Source of the DNA: Escherichia coli
Lineage (GTDB): Bacteria; Pseudomonadota; Gammaproteobacteria; Enterobacterales; Enterobacteriaceae
Strand: one strand, 5' to 3'
DNA length: 64,000 nucleotides
NCBI RefSeq assembly: GCF_003790525.1
Contig: NZ_CP033635.1
Notes under the pieces: model-generated
What the model was told of the DNA's origin: nothing
Seen by the model: only the letters and a program-made list of their open reading frames with translations
The model's database searches: none
Position numbers and translations under genes: made by a program
Part shown: piece after piece, positions 7,811 through 26,213 of the stretch
Numbering within the stretch: the stretch's first letter is position 1
Layout: every line of letters starts with the position of its first letter

Positions 7811-8275
7811 TTATCCGGTGACAATGTTCCACGTCACATCCTCCAGAATGTGTGACCAGTCGCCGTCCTGCGGGATGCGTGATTTCGGCTCCGGTAGATG
7901 TTCTGTCATGAGGGTGCCGTCATCCCTGCGGGTGACGCGCACGCGTTCACGTAACGGCAGCTCAAACAGCACGTCCGCGCTGTCGTCGTCGTTAATGGCC
8001 GCCGTGAACTGAATATCGTTGTTGCGCTCAGGATTAAGCAGCAACTGCGGCTGGTTCTCTGCCAGCCAGACAATCAGTGGAAGCGTCAGGTTGTCCAGAT
8101 CGCCCGTGTAGTCCATCACGAACATCACCAGCCGGTAGTTGTACACGAACGTCGGCGTCTCGCCGGTGGTCTCTATCCCGCCACGTTCAATGAACACGGT
8201 GAACTTTTCCGGGTTGGCCCTGCACCACCGGCACGCTGTACTCATGTGTGTGCTCAGGGATTTACTTTTCAGCAT
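7811..8275 (-). CDS. phage tail completion protein (P2 gpR-like)
   Basis: ORF 7811-8359; start at internal Met gives ~154 aa, matching gpR size; position after the lysis cassette. Confidence 0.7.
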   Translation of the reverse strand: MLKSKSLSTHMSTACRWCRANPEKFTVFIERGGIETTGETPTFVYNYRLVMFVMDYTGDLDNLTLPLIVWLAENQPQLLLNPERNNDIQFTAAINDDDSADVLFELPLRERVRVTRRDDGTLMTEHLPEPKSRIPQDGDWSHILEDVTWNIVTG

Positions 8276-8576
8276 GCGCCTCTCCGTTCTGTCGGTTGAG
8301 TCTCCGGCGCTCCATCGCCTCAATGGCCCGTTTGTCTGCGTTGCAGGTTTCCAGTGCATCCAGGAGGCTGTCGCTCCATATCCCGATATTTCCCCAGGTG
8401 GGGTGTTCAGGGAAGGGCGGGGGCCGTGTTCCCGTCGTCAGTCCCGCCGGAATGAACCGGAAGGAGGGCGCGGGCAGTGGCGCGTTCCGTGTGTTCGCGC
8501 AGCCGGTCAGTAAAACGGTGGTCAGGAAGAGTGCCGGCGCACTCATCCGTCGCAGCAATTTCGCGAAGCTGTTCAC
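8262..8576 (-). CDS. o-spanin lipoprotein (Rz1/LysC-like)
   Basis: Signal peptide with lipobox LLTGC; Pro-rich; embedded out of frame in the 3' part of the i-spanin gene. Confidence 0.65.
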   Translation of the reverse strand: MNSFAKLLRRMSAPALFLTTVLLTGCANTRNAPLPAPSFRFIPAGLTTGTRPPPFPEHPTWGNIGIWSDSLLDALETCNADKRAIEAMERRRLNRQNGEAHAEK

Positions 8577-8814
8577 GTCTGACTTCTCCTTCCTGTGCCC
8601 TTTTCTGTCGCTGCGTCATCACCTCATGCAGTACGGCGGAGGCATCGCTGATAACGGCGGAGGACTCACGCAGCGCCCGGCTGTATTCGCCCAGCTGCTG
8701 CTCTGCGGCGTCACGTGCCTCACCGGCACGCCCCAGCCGGTATGACTGCCACATGGCCGCCGCCGTCAGGGTGGTCACCATGAGGGCAACAATCACGGCG
8801 TAAACCGGTCTCAT
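8407..8814 (-). CDS. i-spanin (Rz/LysB-like)
   Basis: N-terminal TM segment (AVIVALMVTTLTAAAMW) followed by charged helical region; immediately downstream of endolysin; overlaps the o-spanin gene. Confidence 0.65.
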   Translation of the reverse strand: MRPVYAVIVALMVTTLTAAAMWQSYRLGRAGEARDAAEQQLGEYSRALRESSAVISDASAVLHEVMTQRQKRAQEGEVRREQLREIAATDECAGTLPDHRFTDRLREHTERATARALLPVHSGGTDDGNTAPALP

Positions 8815-9356
8815 GTGCTGCCTCCCGTGTCGCGAAGACACCACTGTCTGAACTCCTCCCGGCGGTTAACCAGCCCCTGTGAGCGGCGTCCGCCACTGTT
8901 GACAAAATCGGTCAGTCTCCCGCACATCGCCACCCAGCGGTGCGCCTGTGCGTGCTTCCAGATGGTGGTGCGCTGCCGGTTGCCGCTCCTGTCCCGGTAC
9001 CACATCAGGCCGGTACAGCCGACGTTGAACGCCGCGTCGGTCATCGCCTCAAAGGCGGACTGGGGCATGGCGGCACCGCTGAAGTTCTGGTTGATACAGT
9101 TTTCCGCGTGCCGCAGGTCATTCACCCAGCGGCGGGCCACCTCCTTTTCTCCGTAAACCCGGTTCTCCACGCCCCCTGTTGAACCACATCCCACGGTCAT
9201 TACTCCTGCAATATCACGGTACGGTGTCGCCCGGCACTCTTCCCGGGTGGCGATTTTTATCTGTGCTTCCCGTGAGGTTCTCAGTTCACCGGGTGCCATG
9301 GAGACGCCCAGCGCCACAATGGCCGCCACCGCATAACGTTTTACCGGCAGTTTCAC
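8811..9356 (-). CDS. phage endolysin (lysozyme-type), possibly with N-terminal signal-anchor-release segment
   Basis: 181-aa ORF between holin and spanins; Gly/Ala-rich hydrophobic N-terminus (AVAAIVALGVSMAPG). Confidence 0.75.
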   Translation of the reverse strand: MKLPVKRYAVAAIVALGVSMAPGELRTSREAQIKIATREECRATPYRDIAGVMTVGCGSTGGVENRVYGEKEVARRWVNDLRHAENCINQNFSGAAMPQSAFEAMTDAAFNVGCTGLMWYRDRSGNRQRTTIWKHAQAHRWVAMCGRLTDFVNSGGRRSQGLVNRREEFRQWCLRDTGGST

Positions 9357-9643
9357 CGCTCTTCTCCGTCCTGTCTCACGCTGTCCAGTGCCCGTCTCTC
9401 ACCGTCGTGAAGCTCGCGGTTTTCTGAACGTGCCAGGATGCGGGCGATAAGGTCATTGCGGCGCTTCATTGCCTGCTCCGTACGCCTGCGGTGGCACCAG
9501 GCATGGATGGCGGAAAGTGACCCCAGAAGCAGCCCGGCCAGCGCAATTTTTTCGCTGATGGTCATAACACCAATGGTTGTTGCCGTCACTGACGCCCAGA
9601 AGGTGATCCAGTCACTGACGCGCTGAAAAAATCCCGTCACCAT
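9353..9643 (-). CDS. phage holin
   Basis: 96-aa protein with hydrophobic segments and charged C-terminus; directly upstream of endolysin. Confidence 0.65.
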   Translation of the reverse strand: MVTGFFQRVSDWITFWASVTATTIGVMTISEKIALAGLLLGSLSAIHAWCHRRRTEQAMKRRNDLIARILARSENRELHDGERRALDSVRQDGEER

Positions 9644-13368: not shown

Positions 13369-15120
13369 ATGATTCAGGATACATTTGTTCGCCAGCGGGC
13401 ACGCCAGCTGTACTGGCAGGGTTACCCTGTTGCGGAAATTTCCCGCCTTATGGGTATCAACCAGAACACGATCCATTCGTGGAAAAAACGCGACCAGTGG
13501 GATGAGACGCCCCCGGTTCAGCGTGTCACGCAGTCCATGGATGCGCGACTCATTCAGCTCACGGAAAAACAGAATAAAACAGGCGGGGACTTTAAGGAAA
13601 TTGATTTGCTGACCCGTCAGCTTAAAAAGCTGCATGACGGTCTGCCGGATGAGACGGCAACAGGAAAGAAAGGCCGGGCGAAAAAACACAAAAATCATTT
13701 CACGCCGGAACAGATCGCGGCGCTGCGGGAAAAAATTACCGACAGGCTGGCCGGACACCAGCGCAAATGGCTTGATGCTATCGGTGCCTGTGAGCGTGCC
13801 GGAATTACTGACAGGATGATCCTGAAATCCCGCCAGATTGGGGCGACCTGGTATTTTGCGCAGGAAGCGCTGCTGATGGCGCTGCGTGACGATGTGGCAC
13901 AACCTTACCAGCGTAACCAGATTTTTTTGTCTGCGTCTCGTCGTCAGGCGCTCCAGTTTAAAAGCATTATTCAGAAGGCTGCATCTGAAGTTGATGTGGA
14001 ACTGAAAGGGGGCGATAAAGTCATCCTCTCCAACGGTGCAGAGCTGCATTTTCTCGGCACTTCTGCGGCCACCGCGCAAGCGTACACAGGGAATCTGTAT
14101 TTTGATGAGTTTTTCTGGACGGGGCGTTTCGCAGAGCTGCGCAAGGTGGCTGCTGCTATGGCAACGCTGGATGGTTTGCGGTGTACCTATTTTTCCACGC
14201 CATCAAGTGAAACACATGAGGCGTATGCATACTGGAACGGCGATCACTGGAATGAAGGGCTTCGTACTCATAAACGTCAGCATTTTGATGTGAGCTGGAA
14301 TGCGCTTCATAACGGCCTTATCTGTCCTGACTATATCTGGCGGCAAATTGTGACGCTGGAAGATGTGGTCAGTCAGGGATGGACGTTAACCAACATTGAC
14401 AAAATCCGGCGCAATAACACTGAAGACGAGTTCCGCAATCTCTACATGTGTGAATTTGCTCGCGAAGGGGAATCGGCATTTAACCTGAATATCCTGATTG
14501 GCTGCGGTGTTGACGGATACGACGAGTGGCCGGACTGGAAGCCGTTTGCACCGCGTCCGATGGGGAACCGCCCTGTGTGGATTGGGTACGACGCCAACGG
14601 CAGTAGCGGGAACGGTGACAGCGGGGCGGTTGTCGTGGTGGTGCCGCCAGCCGTACCGGGCGGGCGTTTTCGCACCGTGGAGACGCGGCGGGTGCAGGGG
14701 CTGGAGTTTGAGGCGCAGGCGAAGGTGATTGAAGAGTTCACCTTTCGCTATAACGTTGAGCATATCGGTATTGACGTAACCGGCGGTCACGGGGATGCGG
14801 TGTATCAGATTGTGAAGCGCTTTTTTCCGGCAGCCATTCCCTACACCTTCACCCTGTCATCAAAGCGCACGCTGGTTCTGAAGATGCTGCAGCTCATGCG
14901 CGCCGGGCGGTGGGAGTACGACCGCAGCGAGCGCGAACTGGTGAGCGCCTTTAACGCGGTACGCAAAACAAAAACGCAGGCCGGATTTATCACCTACGAA
15001 ACAGATCGCGCAAGAGGCGTAAGCCATGGCGATCTTGCATGGGCCACCATGCTGGCCGTTATCAACGAACCTGTCGGCGGTGAACATGATGCCGCCCCCT
15101 TCAGTGTTACGGAGTTCTGA
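13369..15120 (+). CDS. phage terminase large (ATPase) subunit (P2 gpP-like)
   Basis: 583-aa ORF, divergent from O, followed by portal gene. Confidence 0.85.
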   Translation: MIQDTFVRQRARQLYWQGYPVAEISRLMGINQNTIHSWKKRDQWDETPPVQRVTQSMDARLIQLTEKQNKTGGDFKEIDLLTRQLKKLHDGLPDETATGKKGRAKKHKNHFTPEQIAALREKITDRLAGHQRKWLDAIGACERAGITDRMILKSRQIGATWYFAQEALLMALRDDVAQPYQRNQIFLSASRRQALQFKSIIQKAASEVDVELKGGDKVILSNGAELHFLGTSAATAQAYTGNLYFDEFFWTGRFAELRKVAAAMATLDGLRCTYFSTPSSETHEAYAYWNGDHWNEGLRTHKRQHFDVSWNALHNGLICPDYIWRQIVTLEDVVSQGWTLTNIDKIRRNNTEDEFRNLYMCEFAREGESAFNLNILIGCGVDGYDEWPDWKPFAPRPMGNRPVWIGYDANGSSGNGDSGAVVVVVPPAVPGGRFRTVETRRVQGLEFEAQAKVIEEFTFRYNVEHIGIDVTGGHGDAVYQIVKRFFPAAIPYTFTLSSKRTLVLKMLQLMRAGRWEYDRSERELVSAFNAVRKTKTQAGFITYETDRARGVSHGDLAWATMLAVINEPVGGEHDAAPFSVTEF

Positions 15121-16175
15121 TGAGCAGAAAAAATAAACAACGACGTACGAACGCCCGCGCAGCGCAGGGCAGCCTTGCGGATTCCCTGCGAAGCGACCCG
15201 ACACTGAGTGCCTTCACGTTTGAAGGACCTTACCGGCTGTCAGGGGCCGACCTGCTGGACAGCATGTACTGCGCCGACAACGGGCGGTGGTTTGAAACGC
15301 CCGTTGACTGGTACGGACTGGCACGGGCTGCCCGCCAGACGTCCTGGCACCAGTCGGCGCTCAGCTTCAAACGTAATGTGCTGCTGGGCTGCTATATTCC
15401 ACATCCTCTGCTGTCCCGCCAGGAGTTCGCCGGGGTGGCGATGGACTGGTTTGTGTTCGGTAATGCCTGTCTTGAGCTGCGGCGCAACATGCTTGGCGAA
15501 CCGCTGGCCCTGCGCCGGGCGCTGGCGAAATACATGCGACGTGGCAGCGATATGAAATCATGGTGGTATATACAGGAAGGACAGGAAGAGTACCGCTTTC
15601 GTGAGGGGACGATATGCCACCTGATGAATCCTGATATCAACCAGGAGATTTACGGGATGCCGGATTACCTGGGCGGCCTGCTGTCTGCCAGCCTGTCACA
15701 TTCCGCCGATATCTTCCGCAAGCTCTACTACGATAACGGCTCACACGCGGGCTGTATTGTCTACATCGGTGCGGCGCAGGTTGACCGTGAAAGCATGGAA
15801 AAACTGCGGGAAACACTGCAAAGCGCGCGTGGTGGCGGGGCGTTTAAAAATCTGCTCATCCACGCGGCGGGAGGTGGTAAGGATGGCGTACAGATTTTGC
15901 CGTTTCAGCAAATCACCGCAAAGGATGAGTTCATGAACGTCAAGGCTGCATCGCGTGATGATGTGCTGTCCGTGCACCGTGTACCGCCGCAGCTGATGGG
16001 GGCCATGCCGGGTGAGAAGGGGTCATTCGGGGATGTGGAGAAGGCAGCCCGTGTGTTTGCCATTAACGAACTGATGCCCGTCATGGAAGCAATGAAACAC
16101 GTCAACGACTGGCTGGGCGAAGAGGTGATCCGTTTTAACCCTTACGCACTGTTAGACACCCAGCCCATATCCTGA
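15120..16175 (+). CDS. phage portal protein (P2 gpQ-like)
   Basis: 351-aa ORF with start overlapping the P stop; P2 Q-P-O arrangement. Confidence 0.85.
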   Translation: MSRKNKQRRTNARAAQGSLADSLRSDPTLSAFTFEGPYRLSGADLLDSMYCADNGRWFETPVDWYGLARAARQTSWHQSALSFKRNVLLGCYIPHPLLSRQEFAGVAMDWFVFGNACLELRRNMLGEPLALRRALAKYMRRGSDMKSWWYIQEGQEEYRFREGTICHLMNPDINQEIYGMPDYLGGLLSASLSHSADIFRKLYYDNGSHAGCIVYIGAAQVDRESMEKLRETLQSARGGGAFKNLLIHAAGGGKDGVQILPFQQITAKDEFMNVKAASRDDVLSVHRVPPQLMGAMPGEKGSFGDVEKAARVFAINELMPVMEAMKHVNDWLGEEVIRFNPYALLDTQPIS

Positions 16176-16202
16176 CGCGCTTCGCTTGTCTGCTGCTTCG
16201 CC

Positions 16203-16225
16203 GGGGCATAAAAAATTTATGCCCC
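16203..16225. terminator. 10-bp stem hairpin between convergent portal gene and cargo gene
   Basis: GGGGCATAAA-AAA-TTTATGCCCC read directly; no flanking U-tract, so may instead be a packaging-site (cos) element. Confidence 0.4.
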
Positions 16226-16241
16226 GACTCTCCAGCTCTGC

Positions 16242-16955
16242 TTAACGAAGTGCTGATGGCGCTCGCTTTTTCAGGTGATTAGCGATGTGCTTTTTCATGT
16301 GCATAACAACATCGCCCCAGGCTTCTTCGCTGGGTTTATTGATAAATACGCGAACAGAAATATCGTCTTCCACCCGGACTCTCAGAGACACCCGTTCCGC
16401 ATCTACTGAATATAATTCAAGTGCAATAACCACGCTTACCGGGTAGCTGCTGTCAGATGACTTAACCCAGGTTCGCACGGCCATGCGGAAAATATTGTCT
16501 GGTGCAGATGCGATATTGTGGACTGAAAGAGGACTAAAATCCGCCGCTGTCTTACATGGCAAGCCTGTCTCCACGTAGCGGTGCAGGTCGCCATCATCGT
16601 CTTCCCAGTACATGGATGGAAGCCCCAGCCATTCTTCATAGAAATCAATCAGCCTTGCCGCTTCATCCCGCAAAATTTGAGCTGCCTCAGCGCGTTTTTC
16701 TTCAGCTTCACGATTGATCTGGCATAAATCATTAAAGTGGCTCATGACATTATCCTCTTTTGAGTTGATGCCTGCCGCTATTCTGACTTTGCCCGGGTTC
16801 TCCTGCAAGCTGGTTATTCCTTCAGATAATTTCACAACATCTCCAACCTTGTAGCCATCATCGCCGGGCGGATGCTTACGCAACCCCGCAACTCTGACGA
16901 CATATTCTCGCTGCCTCAGTGCGATTTTGACGGCCTTATCTTTCACCCCCATCAA
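16242..16955 (-). CDS. hypothetical protein, stand-alone cargo gene at the P2 tin/old-equivalent position; start ambiguous
   Basis: Open frame with normal codon usage; the listed first codon is TTG with ATG as codon 2 (16950-16952); an internal ATG at 16745 has a strong AAGAGGA Shine-Dalgarno; GC lower than the late genes; no family recognised. Confidence 0.55.
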   Translation of the reverse strand: MMGVKDKAVKIALRQREYVVRVAGLRKHPPGDDGYKVGDVVKLSEGITSLQENPGKVRIAAGINSKEDNVMSHFNDLCQINREAEEKRAEAAQILRDEAARLIDFYEEWLGLPSMYWEDDDGDLHRYVETGLPCKTAADFSPLSVHNIASAPDNIFRMAVRTWVKSSDSSYPVSVVIALELYSVDAERVSLRVRVEDDISVRVFINKPSEEAWGDVVMHMKKHIANHLKKRAPSALR

Positions 16956-17171
16956 ATCAAGCTTTTACGTCTTTTTTACGCTCAGCGTGAGAAATACAGC
17001 CATTCTGTTGTGTCGCTGCAACATCGTTCAGGGAATGCTATTTACCCCCTGAAACGCGGGCTGTTCCCCCGTCACCTGCGCGCAGAAAAAGGCCTTTTTT
17101 CGTGCACGCACGGATCCCCGACGGATCCAGACGCCACACGGGCCGGAAGGGCAAAAAGTCGTTCAAAAAAA

Positions 17172-17198
17172 TTGTGCAAATTTGTGCACTATTGTGCA
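17172..17198. repeat. three direct TTGTGCA repeats at exact 10-bp spacing
   Basis: attgtgcaaa / tttgtgcact / attgtgcatt read directly; immediately beside the terminator of the upstream operon. Confidence 0.6.
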
Positions 17199-17205
17199 TT
17201 GAAAT

Positions 17206-17228
17206 AAACGCCCTGGAGGAGGGCGTTT
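17206..17228 (-). terminator. rho-independent terminator after the five-gene small-protein operon
   Basis: AAACGCCCT-GGAGG-AGGGCGTTT 9-bp stem, followed on the minus strand by a U-rich run. Confidence 0.6.
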
Positions 17229-17235
17229 TGCTCAT

Positions 17236-17637
17236 CTATTTATAGCCTTGCCCCTTACTGGCCAGCGCCCTGATGGCAGGGCGTGCCAACACCATATTTT
17301 GGCAATGATGAATTGCCCGGCAAAATTCATCTCTACCCATTGGATGCTCAACTGGCAATGTAAAATACAGGTTCCATGCATCGCCTAAAAGTTGGGCTAT
17401 CTTTTGTTCTTCAGATGTCAGCAAGCGGTACTCCCCATCCTTGATGTAGTCACTTGTGCCATCGACCTGCTGTTCTGCAATGTGGAAAGCACCTATTGGT
17501 TTTGCTTCCAGCGATGCCAAAGCAATCCGTGCCAGTTTTTCCGCTTCTTCGGCTGGCAGTACAACGTTGCTACCAGGTCCGTATGTTTCGCGCCACTGCC
17601 TGATTGTCAGTAGTCGCTCTTTGGTTATAGTGGTCAT
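17236..17637 (-). CDS. hypothetical protein (133 aa)
   Basis: ORF with start overlapping the upstream stop; last gene of the operon following gene A; no family recognised. Confidence 0.5.
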   Translation of the reverse strand: MTTITKERLLTIRQWRETYGPGSNVVLPAEEAEKLARIALASLEAKPIGAFHIAEQQVDGTSDYIKDGEYRLLTSEEQKIAQLLGDAWNLYFTLPVEHPMGRDEFCRAIHHCQNMVLARPAIRALASKGQGYK

Positions 17638-17843
17638 TTGTTAATCCTCAAAACTTTATGCCCGGGCGCAAAAGCACGAGTTTTGTCTTTGCTTATTCGC
17701 CAGCCATCCTTACGCGCCTCTTTTGCACAGCCAGTCCATGACGTACCGATATATTCACCGAAGTCTGGCGTTTGATATTTACCATTTGTACACTGGCGAC
17801 AATCACAATAGAGATGCATGGTGTAACTTGCGGCAATAGCCAT
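17634..17843 (-). CDS. hypothetical small Cys-rich protein (69 aa), possible zinc ribbon
   Basis: Cys residues in a C-x-C-x2-C pattern plus a further Cys; translationally coupled to neighbours. Confidence 0.45.
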   Translation of the reverse strand: MAIAASYTMHLYCDCRQCTNGKYQTPDFGEYIGTSWTGCAKEARKDGWRISKDKTRAFAPGHKVLRINK

Positions 17844-17844
17844 A

Positions 17845-18174
17845 TCAGTCTCCTTTGATGCCAGTGTTTACAACCTGACAAGCCTCTTTGAGCACCCAGT
17901 CAACAGCGTCTTGCCATGCTCCGGTTTCGACTGGCGGATTCTCACGCTTTACCAGTTCATAGAAACGTACTGCTCTAACCAGTCCATCTGACGGTTTTGC
18001 CTGTAGTGCAGCCTGAGCTATGCGGTATACCTGGAGCATACAGGCGTCGTTGATATCCATTCCGAATGGAATATCTGATGACTGAGATTCCACATCTTCC
18101 AGCCTGGCAATTTCTTTACGTAAGAAGCCTTTCAGTTCCTGCTTCTGTTTCCTGTTCATATATTTTTCCTTCAA
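17845..18174 (-). CDS. hypothetical protein (109 aa)
   Basis: ORF in operon; start overlaps the upstream stop. Confidence 0.45.
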   Translation of the reverse strand: MKEKYMNRKQKQELKGFLRKEIARLEDVESQSSDIPFGMDINDACMLQVYRIAQAALQAKPSDGLVRAVRFYELVKRENPPVETGAWQDAVDWVLKEACQVVNTGIKGD

Positions 18175-18365
18175 AGTTCGGTTCGCTGACAGGGTTTCTC
18201 TTTACGGCAGACAATGACGCTTCCTTTGCTCGAGTCGGTGATTGTTACCGTGCCGTCATCACACTGGACAATGACAACGGTGTTGCTCTTTTTCGCTACG
18301 CAGTTCGGCGTGGCTGATTGTGCGAATGGCGCGAAAAACAGCAGAAAAAGTAATATTCTGCTCAC
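18171..18365 (-). CDS. small secreted Cys-containing protein (~64 aa), predicted GTG start
   Basis: GTG at 18363-18365 preceded by GGAGGA Shine-Dalgarno; N-terminal signal-peptide-like SRILLFLLFFAPFAQSA followed by a 4-Cys mature region; the longer ATG-initiated ORF lacks a ribosome-binding site. Confidence 0.45.
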   Translation of the reverse strand: MSRILLFLLFFAPFAQSATPNCVAKKSNTVVIVQCDDGTVTITDSSKGSVIVCRKEKPCQRTEL

Positions 18366-18793
18366 TGTTGTTTCCTCCCGTTCTGTGCTGGTCTGGCGAA
18401 TGAATTGCGTTGTGGTGAAAAGACCATTCGCGCCAGCGCGGCCTTGTGATTGACTGTGTTCAGTGTTCTGGCCAGTCCGCCGTTGTGCCTGCGTGTCCGC
18501 TCTTCGTGATATCTCTGCATGATTTTCCCGGCAGGCGTGCACGGCTCCGGTTCCTCCGGCGAACGGCGCGGACGAATGACGACAGTCCAGCTATGGCTCT
18601 CGCTGCCCGGCCGCCTGTTGAGTATGTCGGCGATGGTGGTCTCCGTGGTGCGATCGGGGCTGACTATCGTGATTTCCAGCTCGTCGCCCGGTTGTGGCCT
18701 TGTGGCAGGCCTGAACAGTGTCAGCACCGGCATACGCTGGCGCATGATGGCCTCAAACTGTGGGCGCTGCATGGTGCAGCAAAATCGCGTCAT
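18362..18793 (-). CDS. hypothetical protein (143 aa), Arg/Pro-rich
   Basis: ORF with start immediately after the gene A stop; GC-rich with alternative frames also open, so coding status is uncertain. Confidence 0.4.
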   Translation of the reverse strand: MTRFCCTMQRPQFEAIMRQRMPVLTLFRPATRPQPGDELEITIVSPDRTTETTIADILNRRPGSESHSWTVVIRPRRSPEEPEPCTPAGKIMQRYHEERTRRHNGGLARTLNTVNHKAALARMVFSPQRNSFARPAQNGRKQQ

Positions 18794-21300
18794 GCTCCCG
18801 CCTCCACTGGCTGCTCTGTGATGATGTGACGGGCTGACTCATCCCAGTACGCTGTTCCCCCGTTATCCAGACGCACACGGGCACCGTTACGCACGGAGAT
18901 GATGGCCGCGTCAGGCAACTGCACACCCAGCGCATCAAGTTCGCGGGCGATTTGCGTGTCCGTCGCGGTATCCGCAGGCACGACAATCCCCACCCTTACA
19001 GGGGTGTCAGATGCCGGTGTGGTGTCGTTTTGTCCGGTTTTTGCGCCCGACGGCTGATTTTTAATCTGATTACGCAGTTTTCTCCGATCGCCCCTGCTTA
19101 ACGTATTCAGCCAGCTTTCCAGGTTCTCTTCGGGAAGCGTCAGTCGTCCGGGGTCCTGCCTGTTTTCTGGTCCGTGATTGTCTGTTTTTTCATCCCGGGG
19201 ACAGTTATTGCCACGAGTCCAAGGGGCGACGGGGTCGCCCTGAAGGTCAAAACCCTCGCCCGTGCGGTTGTCTGGTATTGTTTCTTTTTTAACCAGTTTC
19301 CACTCGTCCGGATGGGTGCATATGGTGTACCGCTCTCCGAGCGACGGGGCGCAGATTCCGTAGATACGTTGAGGGAATTCACCGTAGTCGTTGGCTTCGT
19401 CTGCGGTTTCGTATGCGGTGCGGACCAGATACTGGTTGCGCGGAATGAGCACACCACCCTGTTTCATGATGTAGGTGGCAAAACATCCCACATCTGCGGC
19501 AGCCATAATGGCGTCAATATCGTCATGATCGAGGTGCTTCGGTGATGCCGGGTTGCGCTCCATCTGGCTTGCAAGGCGGCGGAGTTCACGCCATACCTGG
19601 CGGGGCGGAATGCCGAAAAACTGGAACTGACGGATGCGGTGAAGGCTTGCCCAGGCAATGGCGTTCTCCACGGTTTCCGCCATGGTTTTCCCGGATTCCT
19701 CATCAACGTAAGGTTTTCCGGTTTTCGGATCATTGTTGTGGAAAGCGCTGGCGTCCAGGTTCTTACCGATATAGGTTGCGATATAGCTTGCCGGTGTGCC
19801 TTTTTCCGGGTCTATCTTCTCGCATTTAAAGCGCGGTGAAATATCGTCCCCCAGTTCGTGGCGATCTGATTTAATTGCTGCTTCGCGCATAATTTCGATG
19901 ATGCGCTCTGCGTTCTCCGGGGAAGTGAATACCAGCATATGCCAGTGTGGCGTGCCGTCATGGTGTGGCTCAGCGGTTCGCACGCCGTACCAGCCCAGCC
20001 CCTCTTTTTTTATTTTTTTTCTTACGGCTGCGAAGAAGTCGTAAACCAGATAATCACTGGCATCTCGTACTGTGGCACCGTTGTATTTCGGGTTCAGGCT
20101 GCCGTTCTCGTTCACGCTGTGAAAGCGGGAAGGGGTGGTTACTGTGATGAAGAATGCGACGTCAGCCCGTAATTCGGCCACCATCTCCATCCCTCTGACG
20201 CAGACCATCATTTCATTGCGGCGGTTGCGTGGATTACCCAGGCCAGCCCAGTACACGTCCTCCAGACTCAGGCGCTCGCCGTCTTCGTTTTCAATATCCC
20301 AGCTTTTGAGAAAGTCACAGGTGCGCTGGCGCTTCTCGCGGAACTCCAGTAGTGACTCATGGCTGATATAGGGGGATTGTTTACGTGACACTCTGCCGGC
20401 GGCGCGCAGTAACTCCTCCCGCCAGAGATCGGCGACGTGGCGTAACTGGTTGTTCCACCAGGTCGCGCAGGTGATGCGCAGTACCGCACCCGGAACCCGT
20501 TCAGGGTCCGGCGGTGTGCGTCGGTTGTGCCTGATTTCGAGTTCCGGCCAGTATGGCGGGACCATGCCCAGAATTAAGGCTGTGCGTGCCACCTTCTGGT
20601 AGGCCAGCAGCCAGATAACCGGGCTGTCATTATCCTTGCCTGTCCGTTCAAGAACTTCATCACATATGCGTTCAAATTCTGCGGCGAATGCCTGGGCTGT
20701 CAGTGTGGCGATGCGCTGGATTTCGTCACGGGTGAGTTGCGGCAGTGTGAGCAGTTCTTCAAGGCGATGGCGCACGACGGTGGTTTTGAATGCCGGCGTT
20801 GCAAAGCGGTCGTTAACCCTTTCAATACGTTTCAGGCGCGCACGCAGTCCACGGCGAACGAAATTATCGGCCACGTATGCGCTGTTGTTTTTTACACCTT
20901 CACTGCGGGCACTTTGCTGTTTCCGGTTCAGTCGTGCCAGATCACGGATCAACACACTGGCAAGAAACGAGGGCAGGGTGCGAAGTTCGGCTATCGCCTC
21001 CGATACCGCCGTTGGCGGATTTTCGCGTCTGTGTCGTGCCAGCTTATCCAGCCTTATCTGCCGCTCTTCGTCCCGGTGAAGGTGTGAATTAATTTGCTTA
21101 CCTTTGTCCGTGGTTGTCAGGAAGGCCACGGTTTCTTCATCCAGCCGGGCCTCAGTGCGAATGTCTTCGGTGAGGTAGTCACGGATTGCCCGTTGTAATG
21201 CGGTTGGCTTCTGCGGTAATGCTCTGCCGAATGTCTCAGGATCAATAACCGGCAGCGGGGCGTTCCACGGGTACGCCAGGTGCGTGTGGTGATGGCTCAT
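18790..21300 (-). CDS. phage replication initiation endonuclease (P2 gpA-like, rolling-circle)
   Basis: 836-aa ORF; contains a GTPHWHMLVF HUH-type motif; position in the early operon as for P2 A. Confidence 0.8.
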   Translation of the reverse strand: MSHHHTHLAYPWNAPLPVIDPETFGRALPQKPTALQRAIRDYLTEDIRTEARLDEETVAFLTTTDKGKQINSHLHRDEERQIRLDKLARHRRENPPTAVSEAIAELRTLPSFLASVLIRDLARLNRKQQSARSEGVKNNSAYVADNFVRRGLRARLKRIERVNDRFATPAFKTTVVRHRLEELLTLPQLTRDEIQRIATLTAQAFAAEFERICDEVLERTGKDNDSPVIWLLAYQKVARTALILGMVPPYWPELEIRHNRRTPPDPERVPGAVLRITCATWWNNQLRHVADLWREELLRAAGRVSRKQSPYISHESLLEFREKRQRTCDFLKSWDIENEDGERLSLEDVYWAGLGNPRNRRNEMMVCVRGMEMVAELRADVAFFITVTTPSRFHSVNENGSLNPKYNGATVRDASDYLVYDFFAAVRKKIKKEGLGWYGVRTAEPHHDGTPHWHMLVFTSPENAERIIEIMREAAIKSDRHELGDDISPRFKCEKIDPEKGTPASYIATYIGKNLDASAFHNNDPKTGKPYVDEESGKTMAETVENAIAWASLHRIRQFQFFGIPPRQVWRELRRLASQMERNPASPKHLDHDDIDAIMAAADVGCFATYIMKQGGVLIPRNQYLVRTAYETADEANDYGEFPQRIYGICAPSLGERYTICTHPDEWKLVKKETIPDNRTGEGFDLQGDPVAPWTRGNNCPRDEKTDNHGPENRQDPGRLTLPEENLESWLNTLSRGDRRKLRNQIKNQPSGAKTGQNDTTPASDTPVRVGIVVPADTATDTQIARELDALGVQLPDAAIISVRNGARVRLDNGGTAYWDESARHIITEQPVEAGA

Positions 21301-21305
21301 TCCGC

Positions 21306-21719
21306 TTACTCCCCTGCTGTTGCCTTCTGAAATGCAGCCCGGTACAGCACAAGAAGGCGCTGGTATTCAGCGATAAAGTCTTCTGCTGTTTTAATCCCTT
21401 TCACGACCACGCTGTGGGTGGTCATTTCCAGAACGAGCACCATTTCTGACGATGACCAGCTGATAACGCTGCTGTCGCACCCGTTGATGTGGAACAGGCC
21501 CAGCTCCAGGCTGTGGTTCTGGTCTCTGACATCCACGCGGTAACGGTCGTCAACGGTGAAGGAAAAATCCCCGTATGTGGCAGCGCTGCGGGCTGCCTGT
21601 TTACAGGCGCGGCGGTAATAGTCGTGCAGGTCATTGAGACGGGAAGCGAGGCGTGGATCCACCGCCCACATCCAGTTAAAAAAATCCTGAATATCTGAAA
21701 GTCCCTTAACGCTCTTCAT
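21306..21719 (-). CDS. hypothetical protein (137 aa)
   Basis: ORF immediately upstream of gene A on the same strand. Confidence 0.5.
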   Translation of the reverse strand: MKSVKGLSDIQDFFNWMWAVDPRLASRLNDLHDYYRRACKQAARSAATYGDFSFTVDDRYRVDVRDQNHSLELGLFHINGCDSSVISWSSSEMVLVLEMTTHSVVVKGIKTAEDFIAEYQRLLVLYRAAFQKATAGE

Positions 21720-21787
21720 GAGAACCTCCGGAAACGGACGTGCGGAAGCCTCCCGCGTACGGGGGCGGGATGGCTCCGGGATGTTGA

Positions 21788-22012
21788 TTAGTGGTGGTGC
21801 TGGTTAATGAGGTCCTGCAGCTCGCGCAGGTCATCCACCAGGTAGCTGAATACAGCGGCGGAATACATGTTTGACAGTGCGTGGCTGCGCTCATGCAGCA
21901 TATTGATGTGCATGATATGCGCGACGCGGAATGCGCGGAAAAGTCTGCGGTTGATTTCAGTCTGGATGTGACGACGCGCAGCGTATGCGCGCTGTTGTTT
22001 GCGGTTTGCCAT
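21788..22012 (-). CDS. hypothetical small basic protein (74 aa) with C-terminal His run
   Basis: ORF downstream of the iteron-like non-coding region. Confidence 0.45.
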   Translation of the reverse strand: MANRKQQRAYAARRHIQTEINRRLFRAFRVAHIMHINMLHERSHALSNMYSAAVFSYLVDDLRELQDLINQHHH

Positions 22013-22332
22013 GGTGTGGCCTCTGTAGTTGCAAGTTTTGAAAACTCACCATCCAGAGGTTGCAATTCTGGGTGGCGAGACGTACAGGGTTGCAACCACC
22101 GGCAACTACAGAAACCGGCCCGACCGAAGTCGGCCCCATACGCCCCGCCATAATTCTGGCGCGAAAAAGACGTGGCGATACGGTACGCACAAAAAAACCG
22201 CTGGCGCGGTTGTGCGCTGTAGTTGTCAGCGGGGGTTGCAATCCCGGCACCCGTTTTATGAGGTGCAGCGGAAATGTAACCTGACTGATTGCGGCATGGC
22301 AAGCGGTTTTTTTGTGTGTGCATAGTGGTTAC
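22013..22332. repeat. non-coding region with iteron-like CTGTAGTTG / GGTTGCAA repeats
   Basis: GGTTGCAA-type motif at about 22027, 22059, 22089, 22235; CTGTAGTTG at about 22023 and 22218, with its reverse complement at about 22103; all read directly. Confidence 0.6.
22191..22211 (-). terminator. rho-independent terminator inside the iteron region
   Basis: Minus strand reads AACCGC-GCCA-GCGGTT followed by T7. Confidence 0.5.
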
Positions 22333-22971
22333 TCAGTCCGGTAGCAGTTCGCAAAGCACGGTGTCAGCGGCGGTATATCGTGCGTAAAGCCGGGCGAGGA
22401 CCCATCTTTTAAGGGATATCCCGGCCGTGTCCCGGATGTACTTTCTGATTTCGCTGAATGTCATCCCCTGTTCATCGCGCAGTTCAGTTACCAACTCCAC
22501 CAGGTGATCGCTGTATCTGGCTCTGTGGTGGAGTTCCCCGTATTTCCTGAACCGGTACCCTCTTTTTCTCAGGTTCAGTCCCACCGTGGATGTCGAGCGC
22601 CCCAGTTCATTCGCGAGTTCCCGGATGGTTTTTGTGTGGCGATTCCTGATGAGCGTGTTGAGTTCTTTTGTATTCAGGGGGGGTTGTTTGGTGTGGATAA
22701 CCCCCTGAGAGAGCAAAAGACGGATGCGGCTTCGTATTGCTGGCCCGGTTCTCTGAAAGTGTTTTGTCAGTTCTGGTACGGTGTGGGAGGGGTATAAACC
22801 GACCAGTAGAGCATCTTCCTGTTGTGTCCAGGCTCTGACATGCTTCGGTGGTACACCTGATACACCCATAGGTTTAAGTGCGGGCATAGTTGTTCTCCGT
22901 TGTTCTGTTTTGTGTCGGGGTAATGGTCCGGTTTTTTCGCCTTCAACCGGAAAAGAAGGGCGTGTTAGCAT
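22333..22971 (-). CDS. putative DNA-binding protein with repeated helix-turn-helix / Myb-SANT-like motifs; start uncertain
   Basis: WTQQEDALLVGLYPSHTVPELTKHFQRTGPAIRSRIRLL and two further HTH-like segments; several in-frame Met candidates. Confidence 0.5.
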   Translation of the reverse strand: MLTRPSFPVEGEKTGPLPRHKTEQRRTTMPALKPMGVSGVPPKHVRAWTQQEDALLVGLYPSHTVPELTKHFQRTGPAIRSRIRLLLSQGVIHTKQPPLNTKELNTLIRNRHTKTIRELANELGRSTSTVGLNLRKRGYRFRKYGELHHRARYSDHLVELVTELRDEQGMTFSEIRKYIRDTAGISLKRWVLARLYARYTAADTVLCELLPD

Positions 22972-23121
22972 TGATGAATCCGCCGTTCAGTGGATCTGGC
23001 GGACACTTTGTTCAACACGCCCGGGGGTAAAGATGTCTGGCTGCAAAAATTCCACGAGCCAGGTTACCCTGCACTCTGCGCTGATTAGGGGCAGAGCGAT
23101 GACGATGAGGGATAAAACACC

Positions 23122-23604
23122 ATGCAAAACAACCAACGTAAAAAATCGAGAGAACGGGATGAGGTCATGTTCCGTCTCTGGTACAGCTACTGGCTGGAGC
23201 GCATCGCGGCGGTATTCAATCGTCGCCTTGATGCGATCATCAACATTTTGATCCTTGCGGCGGGTGCGTTCATCGTAGCCGGCTGGCATTTCGGCTGGGT
23301 GCTTGGGGCAGTGGTGGTGGTTCTCGGAGCCTGTAATTTCATATGTCGTTTCGGGCAACGTGCGCAGGCGGCGAGTGAGCATGCCCATCGCTACAATGAG
23401 TTGATTACCAAAAGCGCCCTCCTCAGTACGGAAGCTCTGCTGGCACGCCTTCCAGAGCTTGAGATGCATGACTCTCCTGTCCTGGAATGCATGGAAAATG
23501 TGGCGTACAACAAAGCCTGTATGTCTCTGAATATCAGTCATCGTGAATCTCTCTCTTTCGCTGAAAAGATGATGGCTGCCATTACGATCGGTTTTTCCCG
23601 ATAA
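23122..23604 (+). CDS. predicted 2-TM inner-membrane protein (160 aa), opposite strand to the surrounding early operon
   Basis: GAGGG about 11 bp upstream of ATG; basic N-terminus, two adjacent hydrophobic helices (ILILAAGAFIVAGW and WVLGAVVVVLGACNFI), helical C-terminus; preferred over the overlapping His/Arg-rich antisense ORF. Confidence 0.55.
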   Translation: MQNNQRKKSRERDEVMFRLWYSYWLERIAAVFNRRLDAIINILILAAGAFIVAGWHFGWVLGAVVVVLGACNFICRFGQRAQAASEHAHRYNELITKSALLSTEALLARLPELEMHDSPVLECMENVAYNKACMSLNISHRESLSFAEKMMAAITIGFSR

Positions 23605-23643
23605 GTGCCCTGCGTGTGTCATCTGACGCTCGCCATGTTCCCG

Positions 23644-23892
23644 TCAGTCGTTCGGGTTTATGACGTAATCCACGACGTTTTCCACGCGGCGGCGTAATTC
23701 CCTGTGTATCTGGCCTGGTGTTGCTGGTTCGCCCGGTTGCCCCAGGCCTGCCACAAAATCGTCGATTTCACTCATAAGCAGGTTGCGCATTACGGCGATA
23801 TGGTGACGCGCCTCTTTGCCTGGTCTGCGTGCGTTGGTATCGTGTTTGCTGCTCATGTTCTTACCTCGCTTATTATCTCGAGTTCGCGCCAT
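23644..23892 (-). CDS. hypothetical small basic protein; start possibly at 23856
   Basis: ORF in early operon; an internal ATG overlaps the upstream stop. Confidence 0.4.
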   Translation of the reverse strand: MARTRDNKRGKNMSSKHDTNARRPGKEARHHIAVMRNLLMSEIDDFVAGLGQPGEPATPGQIHRELRRRVENVVDYVINPND

Positions 23893-24062
23893 GACTCTGT
23901 CAGGACGGTTATCTGTGACCCGTCCGTCAGGTGGACGTAAATCAGTTCGTCACCTGCCGGGCATCGGGTGGTGGTGGCGATGACACTGCTTTCCACTTCG
24001 TATTCCATCCCGGATGTATCGGTAAAAAGCGTTTTATTGCGTCTTCTCAGAATTGCAGTCAT
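23853..24062 (-). CDS. hypothetical protein (69 aa)
   Basis: ORF in early operon. Confidence 0.4.
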   Translation of the reverse strand: MTAILRRRNKTLFTDTSGMEYEVESSVIATTTRCPAGDELIYVHLTDGSQITVLTESWRELEIISEVRT

Positions 24063-24072
24063 GGTGTGGCCC

Positions 24073-24366
24073 TCAGTGTATTCGTGATGACGTGCCAGCC
24101 TCAGTGCTCTGAAGCTGACGTCTGAGGTTTTTCAGCTCCTGAGCCAGCCTGATGTTTTCTTCCCGGAACTCAGAAAGCGCCTGCACGGCAAGGGCGATGG
24201 CTATCGCTTCTGTCTGGTGCATCATGGCTAATAATATTTCTTCCGGATGTTCCATTAATTCACGGCTTAGTTTGTTTTTTTTCTTAATTAATTTGTTTGT
24301 GCCTTCGATTATTTTGTTGACCTGTTCACTGTTATCAATGATTCGGTTTTTTTTATTATTAAGCAT
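24073..24366 (-). CDS. hypothetical protein (97 aa), Lys-rich N-terminus, predicted coiled coil
   Basis: AT-rich ORF; heptad-like helical sequence. Confidence 0.45.
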   Translation of the reverse strand: MLNNKKNRIIDNSEQVNKIIEGTNKLIKKKNKLSRELMEHPEEILLAMMHQTEAIAIALAVQALSEFREENIRLAQELKNLRRQLQSTEAGTSSRIH

Positions 24367-24446
24367 TCCTGATTTCTCCTTTTTGAGCGGGTCAACCCCT
24401 CCGCGTGAGCGGATGTTTCTGGTTGTTTCTGGTGTTAAACGCCTGT

Positions 24447-24572
24447 TTATTTACGGCGCTTATCGCCAGTAAATAACGATTCAATGGTGTTAATGCTGTT
24501 AATTACCCGCATAATCCCCACAGCGCAAATAATGGCAAGGATAAGAATTAACCATGACATAAATACGCTCAT
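24447..24572 (-). CDS. unlisted small hydrophobic peptide (41 aa, MSVFMSWLILILAIICAVGIMRVINSINTIESLFTGDKRRK)
   Basis: My own reverse-complement translation; ATG overlaps the TGA of the upstream 80-aa gene in an ATGA arrangement; single predicted TM helix. Confidence 0.3.
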   Translation of the reverse strand: MSVFMSWLILILAIICAVGIMRVINSINTIESLFTGDKRRK

Positions 24573-24811
24573 GCTTCCTCCTGAATTACAAAGGGGGTTA
24601 TTACGTTTCCTTCAGACAGGTCTTTATTAATGGCCTGTAATTCCGTCAGAGCTTCATTATCTCCGGAACCAAAGGCGCAACAGGTCAGGCCCTTGATTGC
24701 TGTAGTCAGTGCTGCAAGTGAAACAGCGTCACCGTTAGTGCCACGGCTTGTAAGTCCGTAATGGTAATTCTGAAGCGCGTCGTTAATGAGTTCTTTATAG
24801 GCTCTTTTCAT
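24569..24811 (-). CDS. hypothetical protein (80 aa)
   Basis: ORF in early operon. Confidence 0.4.
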   Translation of the reverse strand: MKRAYKELINDALQNYHYGLTSRGTNGDAVSLAALTTAIKGLTCCAFGSGDNEALTELQAINKDLSEGNVITPFVIQEEA

Positions 24812-24849
24812 CTTGCTGCCTCTTCTGTCTTATTAAGACTCCTTTTGCC

Positions 24850-25158
24850 TTAGTAGTCGGTATGCTGAAAGCTGCGCCCCTCGATTAAGCGGTCGGCAGT
24901 TCGCAAGGCTTCGTGCAGTGTGAAATCCTGTCCGAACTGATTGTCGCCGCTGCTCAGTGCAAAAATGCGGTTTCCGGTAAACGGATTGCGGTGGCATCTG
25001 TGGATCACGAGTCCGGCCTGCTCAATCAGCCAGGTGTGTTGACCAGTCTGTTTTACAGCATGACCGCCCGGCGTTGCGTGTGTTTCGCGCAGGCTCCAGC
25101 GGTTATTGCTGCGTGGTGCACTGTTGCGGAAATGTGGCTGTGAATAATGTTTTCGCAT
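24850..25158 (-). CDS. hypothetical protein (102 aa)
   Basis: ORF preceded by a strong AGGAG Shine-Dalgarno; follows a 280-bp AT-rich gap. Confidence 0.5.
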   Translation of the reverse strand: MRKHYSQPHFRNSAPRSNNRWSLRETHATPGGHAVKQTGQHTWLIEQAGLVIHRCHRNPFTGNRIFALSSGDNQFGQDFTLHEALRTADRLIEGRSFQHTDY

Positions 25159-25440
25159 TATTTATCTCCTGCGCTTATTTTTCCTTCTATGCAATCTTTC
25201 ATGAATAACAAATACTCATTGGCTTCCTCTTCCGTTTTTAATATTCTCTCCAGATAGAAATTCTGAAAGTGTATATAGACTTATGCTCCTACCTTTGTTG
25301 TGGCTATTATGTCTTTTGCTTTAAAGTGCAATGCGTCACTACTTCTGGAGGTTAATCTTTGTCTTGGTTTCATGTTGTTGTCTTCCTTTACTTGAATACT
25401 ATTGCGGAAATATAGCTACGAATGATTACGTTGTGTGCCT

Positions 25441-25647
25441 CTACCTGATGAGCCAGATGACAAACGCTGTAAGTCCCGCGCCAACAACTATTGGAAAAAG
25501 CCCTTTAGAATAAGCTGCGACGTAATGAACGTTGAGGACAATAAAACGTTCTTTTTGTCCTGTTAGCTTGCCAAGCAGATAAATCACTACTACGCCTAAT
25601 TCCAGGAATATAATGTTCAAAACGGCATTGATGATATTGCTGGTCAT
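25441..25647 (-). CDS. small membrane protein (68 aa, two predicted TM helices)
   Basis: Highly hydrophobic AT-rich ORF directly after the first early gene; weak ribosome-binding site. Confidence 0.4.
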   Translation of the reverse strand: MTSNIINAVLNIIFLELGVVVIYLLGKLTGQKERFIVLNVHYVAAYSKGLFPIVVGAGLTAFVIWLIR

Positions 25648-25655
25648 TTTCGTGT

Positions 25656-26177
25656 TTAGCCGGGCTGGTTGTTTTTGAGTTGCTCCAGTTTTGAAACTCT
25701 GGGGGAGTAAACCTGCTTACCTTTAACGGTCTGGCAGTCCTCCTTGTTTGCCGGTGAAAACTTTCTTTTCTTGCGGTCGTACGTCCAGTAGCTTTTCCAG
25801 TTGTGCCACTCTGGCGGTTCGCACTCCAGTAGTTCGTCGGCTAGTTCGTCCCAGGCTTTGGCGTTAAACCACCATGTACCGTCTGACTTTTCATCTTCGG
25901 GATTTGAGCGCGTTTTGTGACCCGGCATCTGCCCGCGCTGAATGGCGGCGCGTAGCGCAGATTTTGTTACCCCCAGATAGGCAGCCCCTTTTTCCAGTGA
26001 CACAAGTCCTGCGACTGGGCCGTCCAGTCGTAGGGTTGCGCCCTTTTTGTAGGACGGTCTGGTTTTGGTTTCCAGGTGTTCGTTGTCGTTGGCAGCTTCA
26101 ATGAATTCATTGTCCGCGCCATCATCCTGAACCGGTTGAGCGCCAGATAACTCTTTGTCGGCAATAATCTCCCGCAT
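25656..26177 (-). CDS. first early-operon protein, Cox/Apl-like helix-turn-helix protein with acidic N-terminal and basic C-terminal extensions
   Basis: Divergent from the repressor gene; HTH-like LEKGAAYLGVTKSALRAAIQRG; at 173 aa it is larger than P2 Cox. Confidence 0.45.
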   Translation of the reverse strand: MREIIADKELSGAQPVQDDGADNEFIEAANDNEHLETKTRPSYKKGATLRLDGPVAGLVSLEKGAAYLGVTKSALRAAIQRGQMPGHKTRSNPEDEKSDGTWWFNAKAWDELADELLECEPPEWHNWKSYWTYDRKKRKFSPANKEDCQTVKGKQVYSPRVSKLEQLKNNQPG

Positions 26178-26213
26178 TTGTTATCCTCTTGCATTGGTGC
26201 GCTTGTTGCGCCT

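Follow-up and report, generated by a model that had tools for sequence, protein, structure and literature searches.

What is a run of five small genes doing directly behind the replication gene of a P2-family prophage, and from where did this lineage acquire them? The run lies at positions 17236-18793, on the minus strand, of a 64-kb segment of an Escherichia coli chromosome (hereafter the window, meaning the whole stretch of DNA that was analyzed), which carries a P2-family prophage (Peduoviridae, P88-related). Our answer is that the run makes up the 3' tail of this prophage's early replication operon (lytic and under repressor control), and that four of its genes (orf64, orf104, orf69 and orf133) apparently derive, judging by homology, from the pool of small non-essential genes that lambdoid and Shiga toxin (Stx) phages house in their exo-xis region. 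We regard this architecture and mosaic origin, taken jointly, as highly likely. For the best explanation as a whole, which also includes a proposed mechanism centered on the envelope-directed product of orf64, we would put the probability at roughly 0.45. The genes and landmarks to which we refer are as follows.

18790-21300, minus strand: gene A (replication), encoding an 836-aa rolling-circle replication endonuclease; the first gene upstream of the cluster
18362-18793, minus strand: orf143, encoding a basic protein of 143 aa
18171-18365, minus strand: orf64, with a GTG start, encoding a four-Cys pre-protein of 64 aa, export predicted
17845-18159, minus strand: orf104, encoding a two-module protein of 104 aa
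17634-17843, minus strand: orf69, encoding a protein of 69 aa (phrog_926) with a CxCxxC cluster
17236-17637, minus strand: orf133, encoding a 133-aa fusion of two modules
About 17204-17228, minus strand: intrinsic terminator, the 3' end of the operon
15120-16175, plus strand: portal gene, the conserved gene past the variable stretch

That five consecutive small open reading frames (ORFs) follow A and end at a terminator had been proposed in a first-pass annotation made from the DNA letters, and this description is upheld by the sequence, the calls of the Prokaryotic Genome Annotation Pipeline (PGAP), PHROG profile matches and ratios of nonsynonymous to synonymous change (dN/dS). The same annotation had described the ORFs as joined by overlapping stop and start codons, which is correct for A/orf143 (ATGA), orf143/orf64 (GTGA, with GGGAGGA 7 nt 5' of the GTG at 18365) and orf69/orf133 (ATGA, with GAGGA ahead of the start). 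It is incorrect for orf64/orf104, where the stop codon is followed by a 12-nt spacer holding AAGGA and then by the ATG at 18159. The orf104/orf69 junction reads TGA-t-ATG, with AAGGAG ahead of the start. Each of the five ORFs has a Shine-Dalgarno site of its own, and all are separated by overlaps or by spacers of at most 12 nt. The terminator consists of a 9-bp GC-rich stem (AAACGCCCU/AGGGCGUUU), a 5-nt loop (CCUCC) and a U-rich tail (AUUU), and for the 81 nt around it the folding energy is -21.3 kcal/mol (z = -4.0), which none of 200 shuffled sequences equaled. A consensus scan of the coding strand within 17236-18793 gave no promoter-like or terminator-like site, and an Rfam scan of 16000-21500 returned no match. 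The GC content is 0.56 in A and 0.60 in orf143, and 0.45-0.49 in the next four genes.

Over the 1.8 kb around the cluster, nine complete E. coli genomes show 100% identity and 21 in all show 99.9% or more, and the complete five-gene arrangement is present in 21 of the 5426 complete E. coli genomes. On the identical chromosomes PGAP places five hypothetical coding sequences after the 'replication endonuclease'. In one strain, SCU-115, the prophage adjoins rraA/menA and follows the P2-type order of int, repressor, cox, early genes, A, a variable stretch, and then the portal, terminase and capsid genes. Farther upstream on the minus strand, in the early operon 5' of A (window ~21306-26200; 8011-9595 of the annotated locus L001), a 'DNA-binding protein' and a 'derepression protein' are annotated, yet no perfect LexA box is found in the window.

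Each of the five ORFs matches a PHROG family, and all of the labels read 'unknown function' bar one, that of a 67-residue profile matching the C-terminus of orf133, whose 'DNA ligase' label we did not trust. Against diverged homologs dN/dS is 0.20-0.44 for orf64 and 0.09-0.42 for orf143, and the exact proteins occur on 360 (orf133) to at least 1000 (orf104) public contigs, where they are named 'hypothetical' every time. Given the profile matches, the dN/dS values and the wide occurrence, we take the ORFs to be genes rather than chance frames. None of the five had been recognizable at first sight, and searches have left them so: there was no significant Pfam match for any of the five proteins or for any member of the orf64 alignment, no NCBIfam or PADLOC match for the five, and no match for any of them in sequence searches of the PDB. 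A literature search with the WP accessions, the motif strings and DUF4762 (a label discussed below) found no paper. All five proteins are already in the databases as hypotheticals, and the kind of locus is likewise known, namely a mosaic early-operon tail in a known variable region.

The first gene of the run belongs with the A lineage of this prophage. The A product shares 32-33% identity with gpA of P2 and 186, and 51-56% with P88-like gpA. The product of orf143 (pI 11.3) matches phrog_14984 over its full length, and its homologs are restricted to E. coli (61-99% identity). In the window and in three relatives (L009, L011 and L012) orf143 overlaps the A stop codon by ATGA, and in these relatives it is kept with the same A lineage while the genes after it vary. 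As the protein is basic and tied to A, it may be a nucleic-acid-binding accessory of replication. We considered whether it might be a divergent ASCH-like analogue of P2 Orf91 (DUF3850), and rejected this because sequence and profile tests were negative (Pfam none, BLASTP none, hhalign probability 0.2%).

The origin of the other four genes is best read from the DNA shared with other phages. When the cluster was compared by megablast with a phage collection, only query positions 730-1404 were shared, comprising the C-terminus of orf104, orf69 and the N-terminus of orf133. This stretch was matched in 185 phage records at 90-97% identity, almost all of them lambdoid, Stx-converting or P1-like, and was present in 1712 of the 5426 complete E. 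coli genomes. The C-module of orf104, orf69 and the N-module of orf133 are 90-98% identical to exo-xis genes of many phages, Stx2 phage 86 and phiV10 among them. The matching segment of Stx2 phage 86 is downstream of bet and exo, with the ead/Ea22-like gp47 on one side and the DUF551 protein gp44 on the other, and includes an unannotated orf69 homolog of 93% identity (L018 3514-3720); in phiV10 the counterpart of orf69 is p52. Membership in the exo-xis pool was thus found for these three, and for orf64 through more distant family members, and was not found for orf143. The exo-xis region is described as non-essential, among the earliest transcribed and strongly mosaic, and as having a part in the control of lytic versus lysogenic development (PMC10834534). 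The first-pass annotation had reckoned with the outcome that all five ORFs would prove to be ubiquitous hypotheticals of P2-family replication modules, and this turned out half right: hypothetical proteins that are very common do make up three of the five, but their source is the lambdoid exo-xis region, not P2 replication modules.

Loci retrieved with the orf64 family lead to the same pool. In at least 20 loci of lambdoid type, out of 37 IMG/VR loci, the orf64-family gene overlaps the start of a gene for a 214-357-aa protein carrying the orf133 N-module (phrog_60/660/3323/5117), and a phrog_926 (orf69 family) gene is found directly upstream of the orf64-family gene in three of the loci and no more than 2.6 kb away in another five. 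Genes of the orf64, orf69 and orf133 types are in this sense habitual neighbors in lambdoid early regions, and in this window a block from that pool has apparently been joined to A-orf143.

Within the block, orf104 and orf133 are each assembled from two modules. For orf104 the first-pass annotation had given 109 aa, which corresponds to a TTG start at 18174; this codon has no ribosome-binding site, and the ATG at 18159, preceded by AAGGA and chosen by PGAP, is preferred and gives 104 aa. The N-module of orf104 spans residues 1-56 and ends in RIAQAALQAKP, homology to its paralogs in the relative L009 breaks off at residues 57-58, and the C-module (phrog_26213/660) is common to lambdoid phages at 82-100% identity. 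In orf133 the N-module spans residues 1-47, ends in ARIALASLEAKP, matches phrog_60/3323/660/5117 and is 90% identical to the N-terminus of gp45 of Stx2 phage 86 over residues 1-48 only, while the C-terminal part matches phrog_13916; this C-domain of 62-63 aa is also found as a free-standing protein on more than 800 contigs. The PGAP call for orf133 stops after 45 codons and is labelled a pseudogene 'missing C-terminus' (L001 13264-13398), although the 133-codon frame is intact, and we attribute this call to orf133 being a fusion whose C-domain elsewhere stands free. No Pfam match was obtained for orf104 even at E <= 10; for orf133 there was no match to Ead_Ea22 (PF13935), DUF550 or DUF551, and the only two Pfam matches were at noise level (E about 0.4). 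The Ead/Ea22 genes in related loci are neighbors, not homologs, of the cluster genes.

A motif shared by both proteins marks the joint. RIA(L/Q)A(S/A)L(E/Q)AKP occupies residues 46-56 of orf104 (17992-18024) and residues 36-47 of orf133 (17497-17532), stands at the same place in larger relatives, and also occurs in proteins of four further loci (L027, L029, L051 and L053). The break points of homology among the mosaic relatives lie directly after RIAxAxLxAKP, which in these alignments looks like a conserved linker at which the N- and C-modules of exo-xis-type proteins reassort. The remaining small protein of the block, orf69, is a very common lambdoid exo-xis product (phrog_926) with a conserved CxCxxC cluster. 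It had been read at first pass as a possible zinc ribbon, a reading that we abandoned: a zinc ribbon needs two CxxC/CxxH knuckles, carried on beta hairpins and supplying four conserved metal ligands between them, and orf69 lacks the second Cys knuckle and is not predicted to be one.

The least ordinary member of the run is orf64, whose product (PGAP entry WP_000086827.1) consists of M(V)SRILLFLLFFAPFAQS and ATPNCVAKKSNTVVIVQCDDGTVTITDSSKGSVIVCRKEKPCQRTEL on either side of the predicted cleavage site. Its GTG start behind GGAGGA, already suggested at first pass, is backed by the ribosome-binding site, by the PGAP call and by an ATG at the equivalent position in homologs. A 123-aa, upstream-extended version in UniProt (A0A376MUQ6) overlaps orf143 and was set aside as an over-call. 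The N-terminus reads M-S-R, then ILLFLLFFAPF, then AQS followed by A, and residues 1-17 are predicted to form a signal peptide. As a heuristic test we required positive charge in the n-region, 7-15 hydrophobic residues in the h-region and, at -3/-1, residues that are small and uncharged, and by these standards orf64 qualifies as a pre-protein of Sec and type I signal peptidase. Nine of ten homologs likewise have a positive n-region, a 10-aa hydrophobic core (Kyte-Doolittle 2.7-3.4) and small residues at -3/-1, even as their sequences differ, and all 24 distinct IMG/VR members show a signal-like N-terminus followed by a four-Cys domain. The -3/-1 sites in the family are AQS, AHS, AMA, VTA and AWA. 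No lipobox (L-[AS]-[GA]-C) is present in orf64, the first Cys lying at +5 of the predicted mature end (ATPNC) with no prior L-x-x-C.

Selection on the two parts of the protein differs in the direction to be expected. In pairs of homologs the proportion of nonsynonymous differences (pN) in the signal part is about equal to that of synonymous differences (pS), and in the mature part pN is 0.12-0.17 versus a pS of 0.34-0.66; a drifting signal part ahead of a constrained mature part is the pattern expected of a cleaved signal peptide. The early observation of a signal-peptide-like N-terminus and a four-Cys mature part is therefore well founded, since the family keeps both while the signal sequence drifts, and only the length of the mature part, put at about 43 aa, needs revision, to about 47 aa if the protein is cut after AQS. 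On this footing orf64 very probably encodes an exported Sec pre-protein.

The mature domain is characterized by the motif C-x12-QC[DN]DGTV...C...C (alignments A1 and A3, with the 24 IMG/VR members), in which Q34, C35, D37, G38, T39, V40 and C53 are invariant. An AlphaFold2 model built on a 10-sequence alignment gave residues 20-64 a pLDDT of about 97, and describes a meander of five antiparallel beta strands. Strands 22-27 and 30-35 form a hairpin with C22 opposite C35, and the loop ahead of the final strand is closed by C53 and C59. This register leads us to infer two disulfides (C22-C35 and C53-C59). One Foldseek match, to a Klebsiella protein of 70 aa with 37% identity and E = 0.013, carries the label DUF4762; in Pfam scans at E <= 0.001 the members of alignment A3 gave no family match.

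A word-indexed search found three close homologs of orf64, and an exhaustive HMMER search added a few more small proteins; the long repeat proteins that the latter also returned (P0005-P0007, P0009 and P0012) were rejected, those inspected (P0005, P0006 and P0012) being eukaryote-like repeats or WD40 'DDGT' hairpins. Homologs were found by tblastn in 17 records of virulent Erwinia jumbo phages (Agricanvirus), and a pattern scan of IMG/VR with QC[DN]DGTV gave the 37 loci and 24 distinct proteins mentioned above. The family thus occurs in lambdoid, P88-like and virulent Erwinia jumbo phages, with no constant partner across these contexts. In P88-like prophages the gene comes after gpA-ParM-StbB and before an SSB or ClpX-type zinc-finger gene, in jumbo phages it precedes nrdF, near the nrd genes, and in lambdoid loci it has DUF550/MazZ-type and PAPS-reductase-like genes as neighbors. 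On one food-metagenome contig (L006; 166-1026 and 2073-2282) the gene shares its strand with a Tad2-like/Sequestin gene and lies two genes downstream of it, at a distance of about 1 kb, an arrangement that hints that the orf64 family travels with counter-defence genes of the anti-Thoeris, sponge-like kind. In strain P13-6 (L013 3459-3653) an orf64 homolog has been missed, and an antisense ORF is annotated in its place.

The position that orf64 occupies may be exchangeable as a unit. In E. coli E7-1N7 (L009), where A and orf143 share 95% and 96% protein identity with the window, orf64 has been replaced precisely from start to stop codon (L009 4036-4203) by an unrelated 55-aa peptide with two hydrophobic helices (a two-transmembrane, or 2-TM, peptide), and the flanks of the slot, including the ribosome-binding site, the start position and the start of orf104, are kept. 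This two-helix peptide of 54-55 aa has no PHROG match; a related one is encoded close by in the relative L012 (3682-3846).

The mechanism that we propose would run as follows. The early promoter that serves A would also drive the five genes, their translation would proceed through coupling or reinitiation, and, lying in the tail of the early transcript, they would be expected to yield their products on infection or induction and to be silent in the lysogen. Coupling has precedents in this type of operon: according to the 186 record, A seems to be translated only if translation reaches the end of orf84, and P2 Orf91 is ATGA-coupled to A. The orf64 product would be exported by Sec, cut after AQS and folded in the periplasm as a two-disulfide, five-strand beta meander, where it may act on the envelope of the infected cell during lytic growth. 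Such an action at the envelope in the lytic phase would agree with the presence of the family in virulent jumbo phages, which have no lysogenic state, and with a 2-TM peptide in the same slot of one close relative. Known phage proteins sent early to the envelope serve mostly in superinfection exclusion or entry blocking (T4 Sp and Imm, T5 Llp, P1 Sim), and for this reason the likeliest role of orf64 might be of that kind, in excluding superinfecting phages or in blocking a receptor or entry; by this analogy an exclusion-type mechanism is possible, and we put it forward tentatively. The cytoplasmic products of orf104, orf69 and orf133 would be auxiliary, dispensable modulators of host physiology or of the lysis-lysogeny decision, like other exo-xis genes. 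A broader and more speculative proposal, to which we give little credence at present, is that the orf64 family constitutes a new class of phage disulfide-locked periplasmic mini-proteins, spread among lambdoid, P2-like and jumbo phages of Enterobacterales, that would act on an envelope target in lytic growth by blocking a receptor or DNA entry or by disarming an envelope defence, and that the slot after A/orf143 swaps small envelope effectors.

Several points count against this explanation. Exclusion proteins of temperate phages are usually made from the prophage, and orf64 looks repressed in the lysogen. Co-transcription of the five genes with A is read from the gene layout, the export of orf64 is predicted from our own heuristic together with family conservation, its disulfide pairing is taken from the secondary-structure register and not from coordinates, and the slot-swap argument draws on a single relative, E7-1N7.

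Among other explanations, the one that deserves most attention holds that the small genes encode early lytic counter-defence proteins (anti-restriction, anti-abortive-infection or sponge-like). Many small early phage proteins prove to be such, and the genes of the cluster are early-operon, small, mosaic and quickly reshuffled; the Tad2-like/Sequestin gene about 1 kb upstream of one orf64 homolog and in the same orientation, and the DUF550/MazZ-type and PAPS-reductase-like neighbors in lambdoid loci, point the same way, and we consider this rather unlikely. It is improbable that the genes are anti-phage defence cargo, expressed from the prophage like P2 tin and old. They do lie between gpA and gpQ, the hotspot of Rousset et al. 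2022 (PMC9122126), and a 2026 preprint reports that in 19% of P2-like elements this interval holds unknown genes exclusively, with many such loci expected to be defensive. However, the genes are co-oriented with A, start/stop-coupled and without a promoter-like site of their own, whereas P2 tin and old are divergent from A with their own transcript start. In addition they yielded no PADLOC match, they are also found in lambdoid exo-xis regions (for orf64, in jumbo phages as well, which are virulent and have no lysogenic state), and they are followed by a terminator, beyond which a 237-aa gene (orf237, described below) is the better hotspot candidate. Much the same low probability attaches to the idea that some ORFs, chiefly the fusions orf104 and orf133, are functionless by-products of recent mosaic recombination. 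This would fit the PGAP pseudogene call for orf133, the fact that both are junction products broken at the shared linker motif, and the restriction of the full arrangement to 21 of 5426 genomes; yet both frames are intact with good ribosome-binding sites, the orf133 C-domain is widespread as a free-standing protein, the exact proteins recur on hundreds of contigs (at least 1000 for orf104, 360 for orf133), and an N-module followed by a variable C-domain is the rule in this protein group.

The position after A, which is that of P2 Orf91 and of the 186 p95 operon, might instead suggest a P2/186-style set of replication-linked or SOS accessory genes (equivalents of Orf91, Tum or CP93-97), with orf69 as a zinc-ribbon nucleic-acid binder, and the first-pass annotation had leaned on the same analogy with 186. 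The very basic orf143, always linked to the A lineage, could by itself have a replication-accessory role. For the set as a whole the analogy is not sustained: neither sequence nor profile comparison revealed similarity to P2 Orf91, tblastn found no match to right-end genes of 186 or P2 other than A (32-33% identity), no perfect LexA box (CTGT-N8-ACAG) occurs in the window, and orf69, lacking a second Cys knuckle, is not predicted to be a zinc ribbon, which leaves this reading very improbable. Least probable of all, to our minds, is a role for orf64 in lysogenic conversion, as a secreted peptide made to benefit the lysogen, a toxin or virulence factor resembling STb, a 48-aa heat-stable enterotoxin with two disulfides. 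A small, four-Cys protein with predicted Sec export, encoded by an E. coli prophage of human and poultry isolates, invites the comparison, but Pfam scans of all orf64 family members match no toxin family, the early operon that holds the gene is repressed, virulent phages of Erwinia, a plant-associated genus, have homologs, and nothing points to transport of orf64 across the outer membrane. Our preferred explanation remains that of an early-operon tail drawn largely from the exo-xis pool, with orf64 as a predicted envelope-directed member.

Three observations were made on the far side of the operon terminator. Directly downstream of it, at 17172-17198 on the minus strand, are three copies of TGCACAA at an exact 10-bp spacing. 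The 64-kb window holds only 4 copies of the heptamer where about 15 would be expected, and its phasing and rarity make the array look like a candidate for a phased protein-binding site; it belongs to an intergenic stretch that is conserved in P88-like phages, and it may be close to the packaging site. A stretch at 16956-17140 on the minus strand, CTGCGCGCAGGTGACGGGGG, resembles the sequence just inside P2 cosL (CTGCGCGCTGACGGTGG) and is a candidate only; the 19-mer of the P2/186 cos site found no match with up to 3 mismatches. If cos does lie there, orf237 would stand at the left end of the packaged genome. This gene (16242-16955, minus strand; 236/237 aa, WP_223942718.1) encodes a protein whose residues 69-235 match phrog_5091 and that has no PADLOC match. 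Its neighbors are the conserved intergenic region on one side and the portal gene on the other; it is absent from the P88-like phages that match both flanks, and in the gpA-gpQ hotspot of this prophage it is probably the true variable cargo.

As to what these results mean, hotspot cargo does not account for the whole stretch after A in P2-family prophages: an early-operon tail from the exo-xis pool makes up part of it, and this bears on the mining of defence islands between gpA and gpQ. Several gene calls should be corrected, namely the orf133 pseudogene, the missed or antisense orf64 homolog, the 123-aa version of orf64 and the unannotated orf69 homolog in Stx2 phage 86. The orf64 family, being short, confidently modelled, predicted to be exported and present in temperate as well as virulent phages, offers a cheap target for exclusion and envelope assays, and the RIAxAxLxAKP junction gives a concrete handle on how mosaic accessory proteins reassort. 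What is new here is modest: the exo-xis origin of four genes, orf64 as a conserved family of predicted-exported two-disulfide beta meanders, and the cassette swap from start to stop codon. Most of the region is ordinary, orf64 being its one modestly interesting member, and no major concept is changed.

Set beside known systems, the cluster shares features with several and coincides with none. The 186 p95 SOS operon (tum, orf97) also lies downstream of A near the right genome end, but has its own LexA-controlled promoter, whereas the present genes are coupled to A, with no LexA box and no tblastn homology to the right end of 186. P2 Orf91 (DUF3850) is like orf143 in position and in its ATGA coupling to A, and unlike it in sequence and profile. 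The P2 gpA-gpQ hotspot covers the same interval and shows the same rapid turnover of genes among close relatives; here, however, the genes are coupled to A, match no defence model and are separated by the terminator from orf237. T4 Sp and Imm, T5 Llp and P1 Sim are, like the predicted orf64 product, small early proteins of the periplasm or membrane, although T5 Llp has a lipobox that orf64 lacks, and no sequence or fold relationship was detected between orf64 and the characterized exclusion proteins T4 Sp, T5 Llp, P1 Sim and Cor. The T4 pair, one periplasmic and one 2-TM protein, mirrors the alternative occupants of the orf64 slot. With the lambdoid/Stx exo-xis region, finally, the cluster has in common genes that are small, non-essential, earliest-expressed and strongly mosaic (PMC10834534). 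None of the named exo-xis genes (orf60a, orf61, orf63, ea8.5, ea22) is among the five, nor is there a Pfam signature of Ead_Ea22, DUF550 or DUF551, and the present genes extend the replication operon of a P2-family phage rather than a pL operon.

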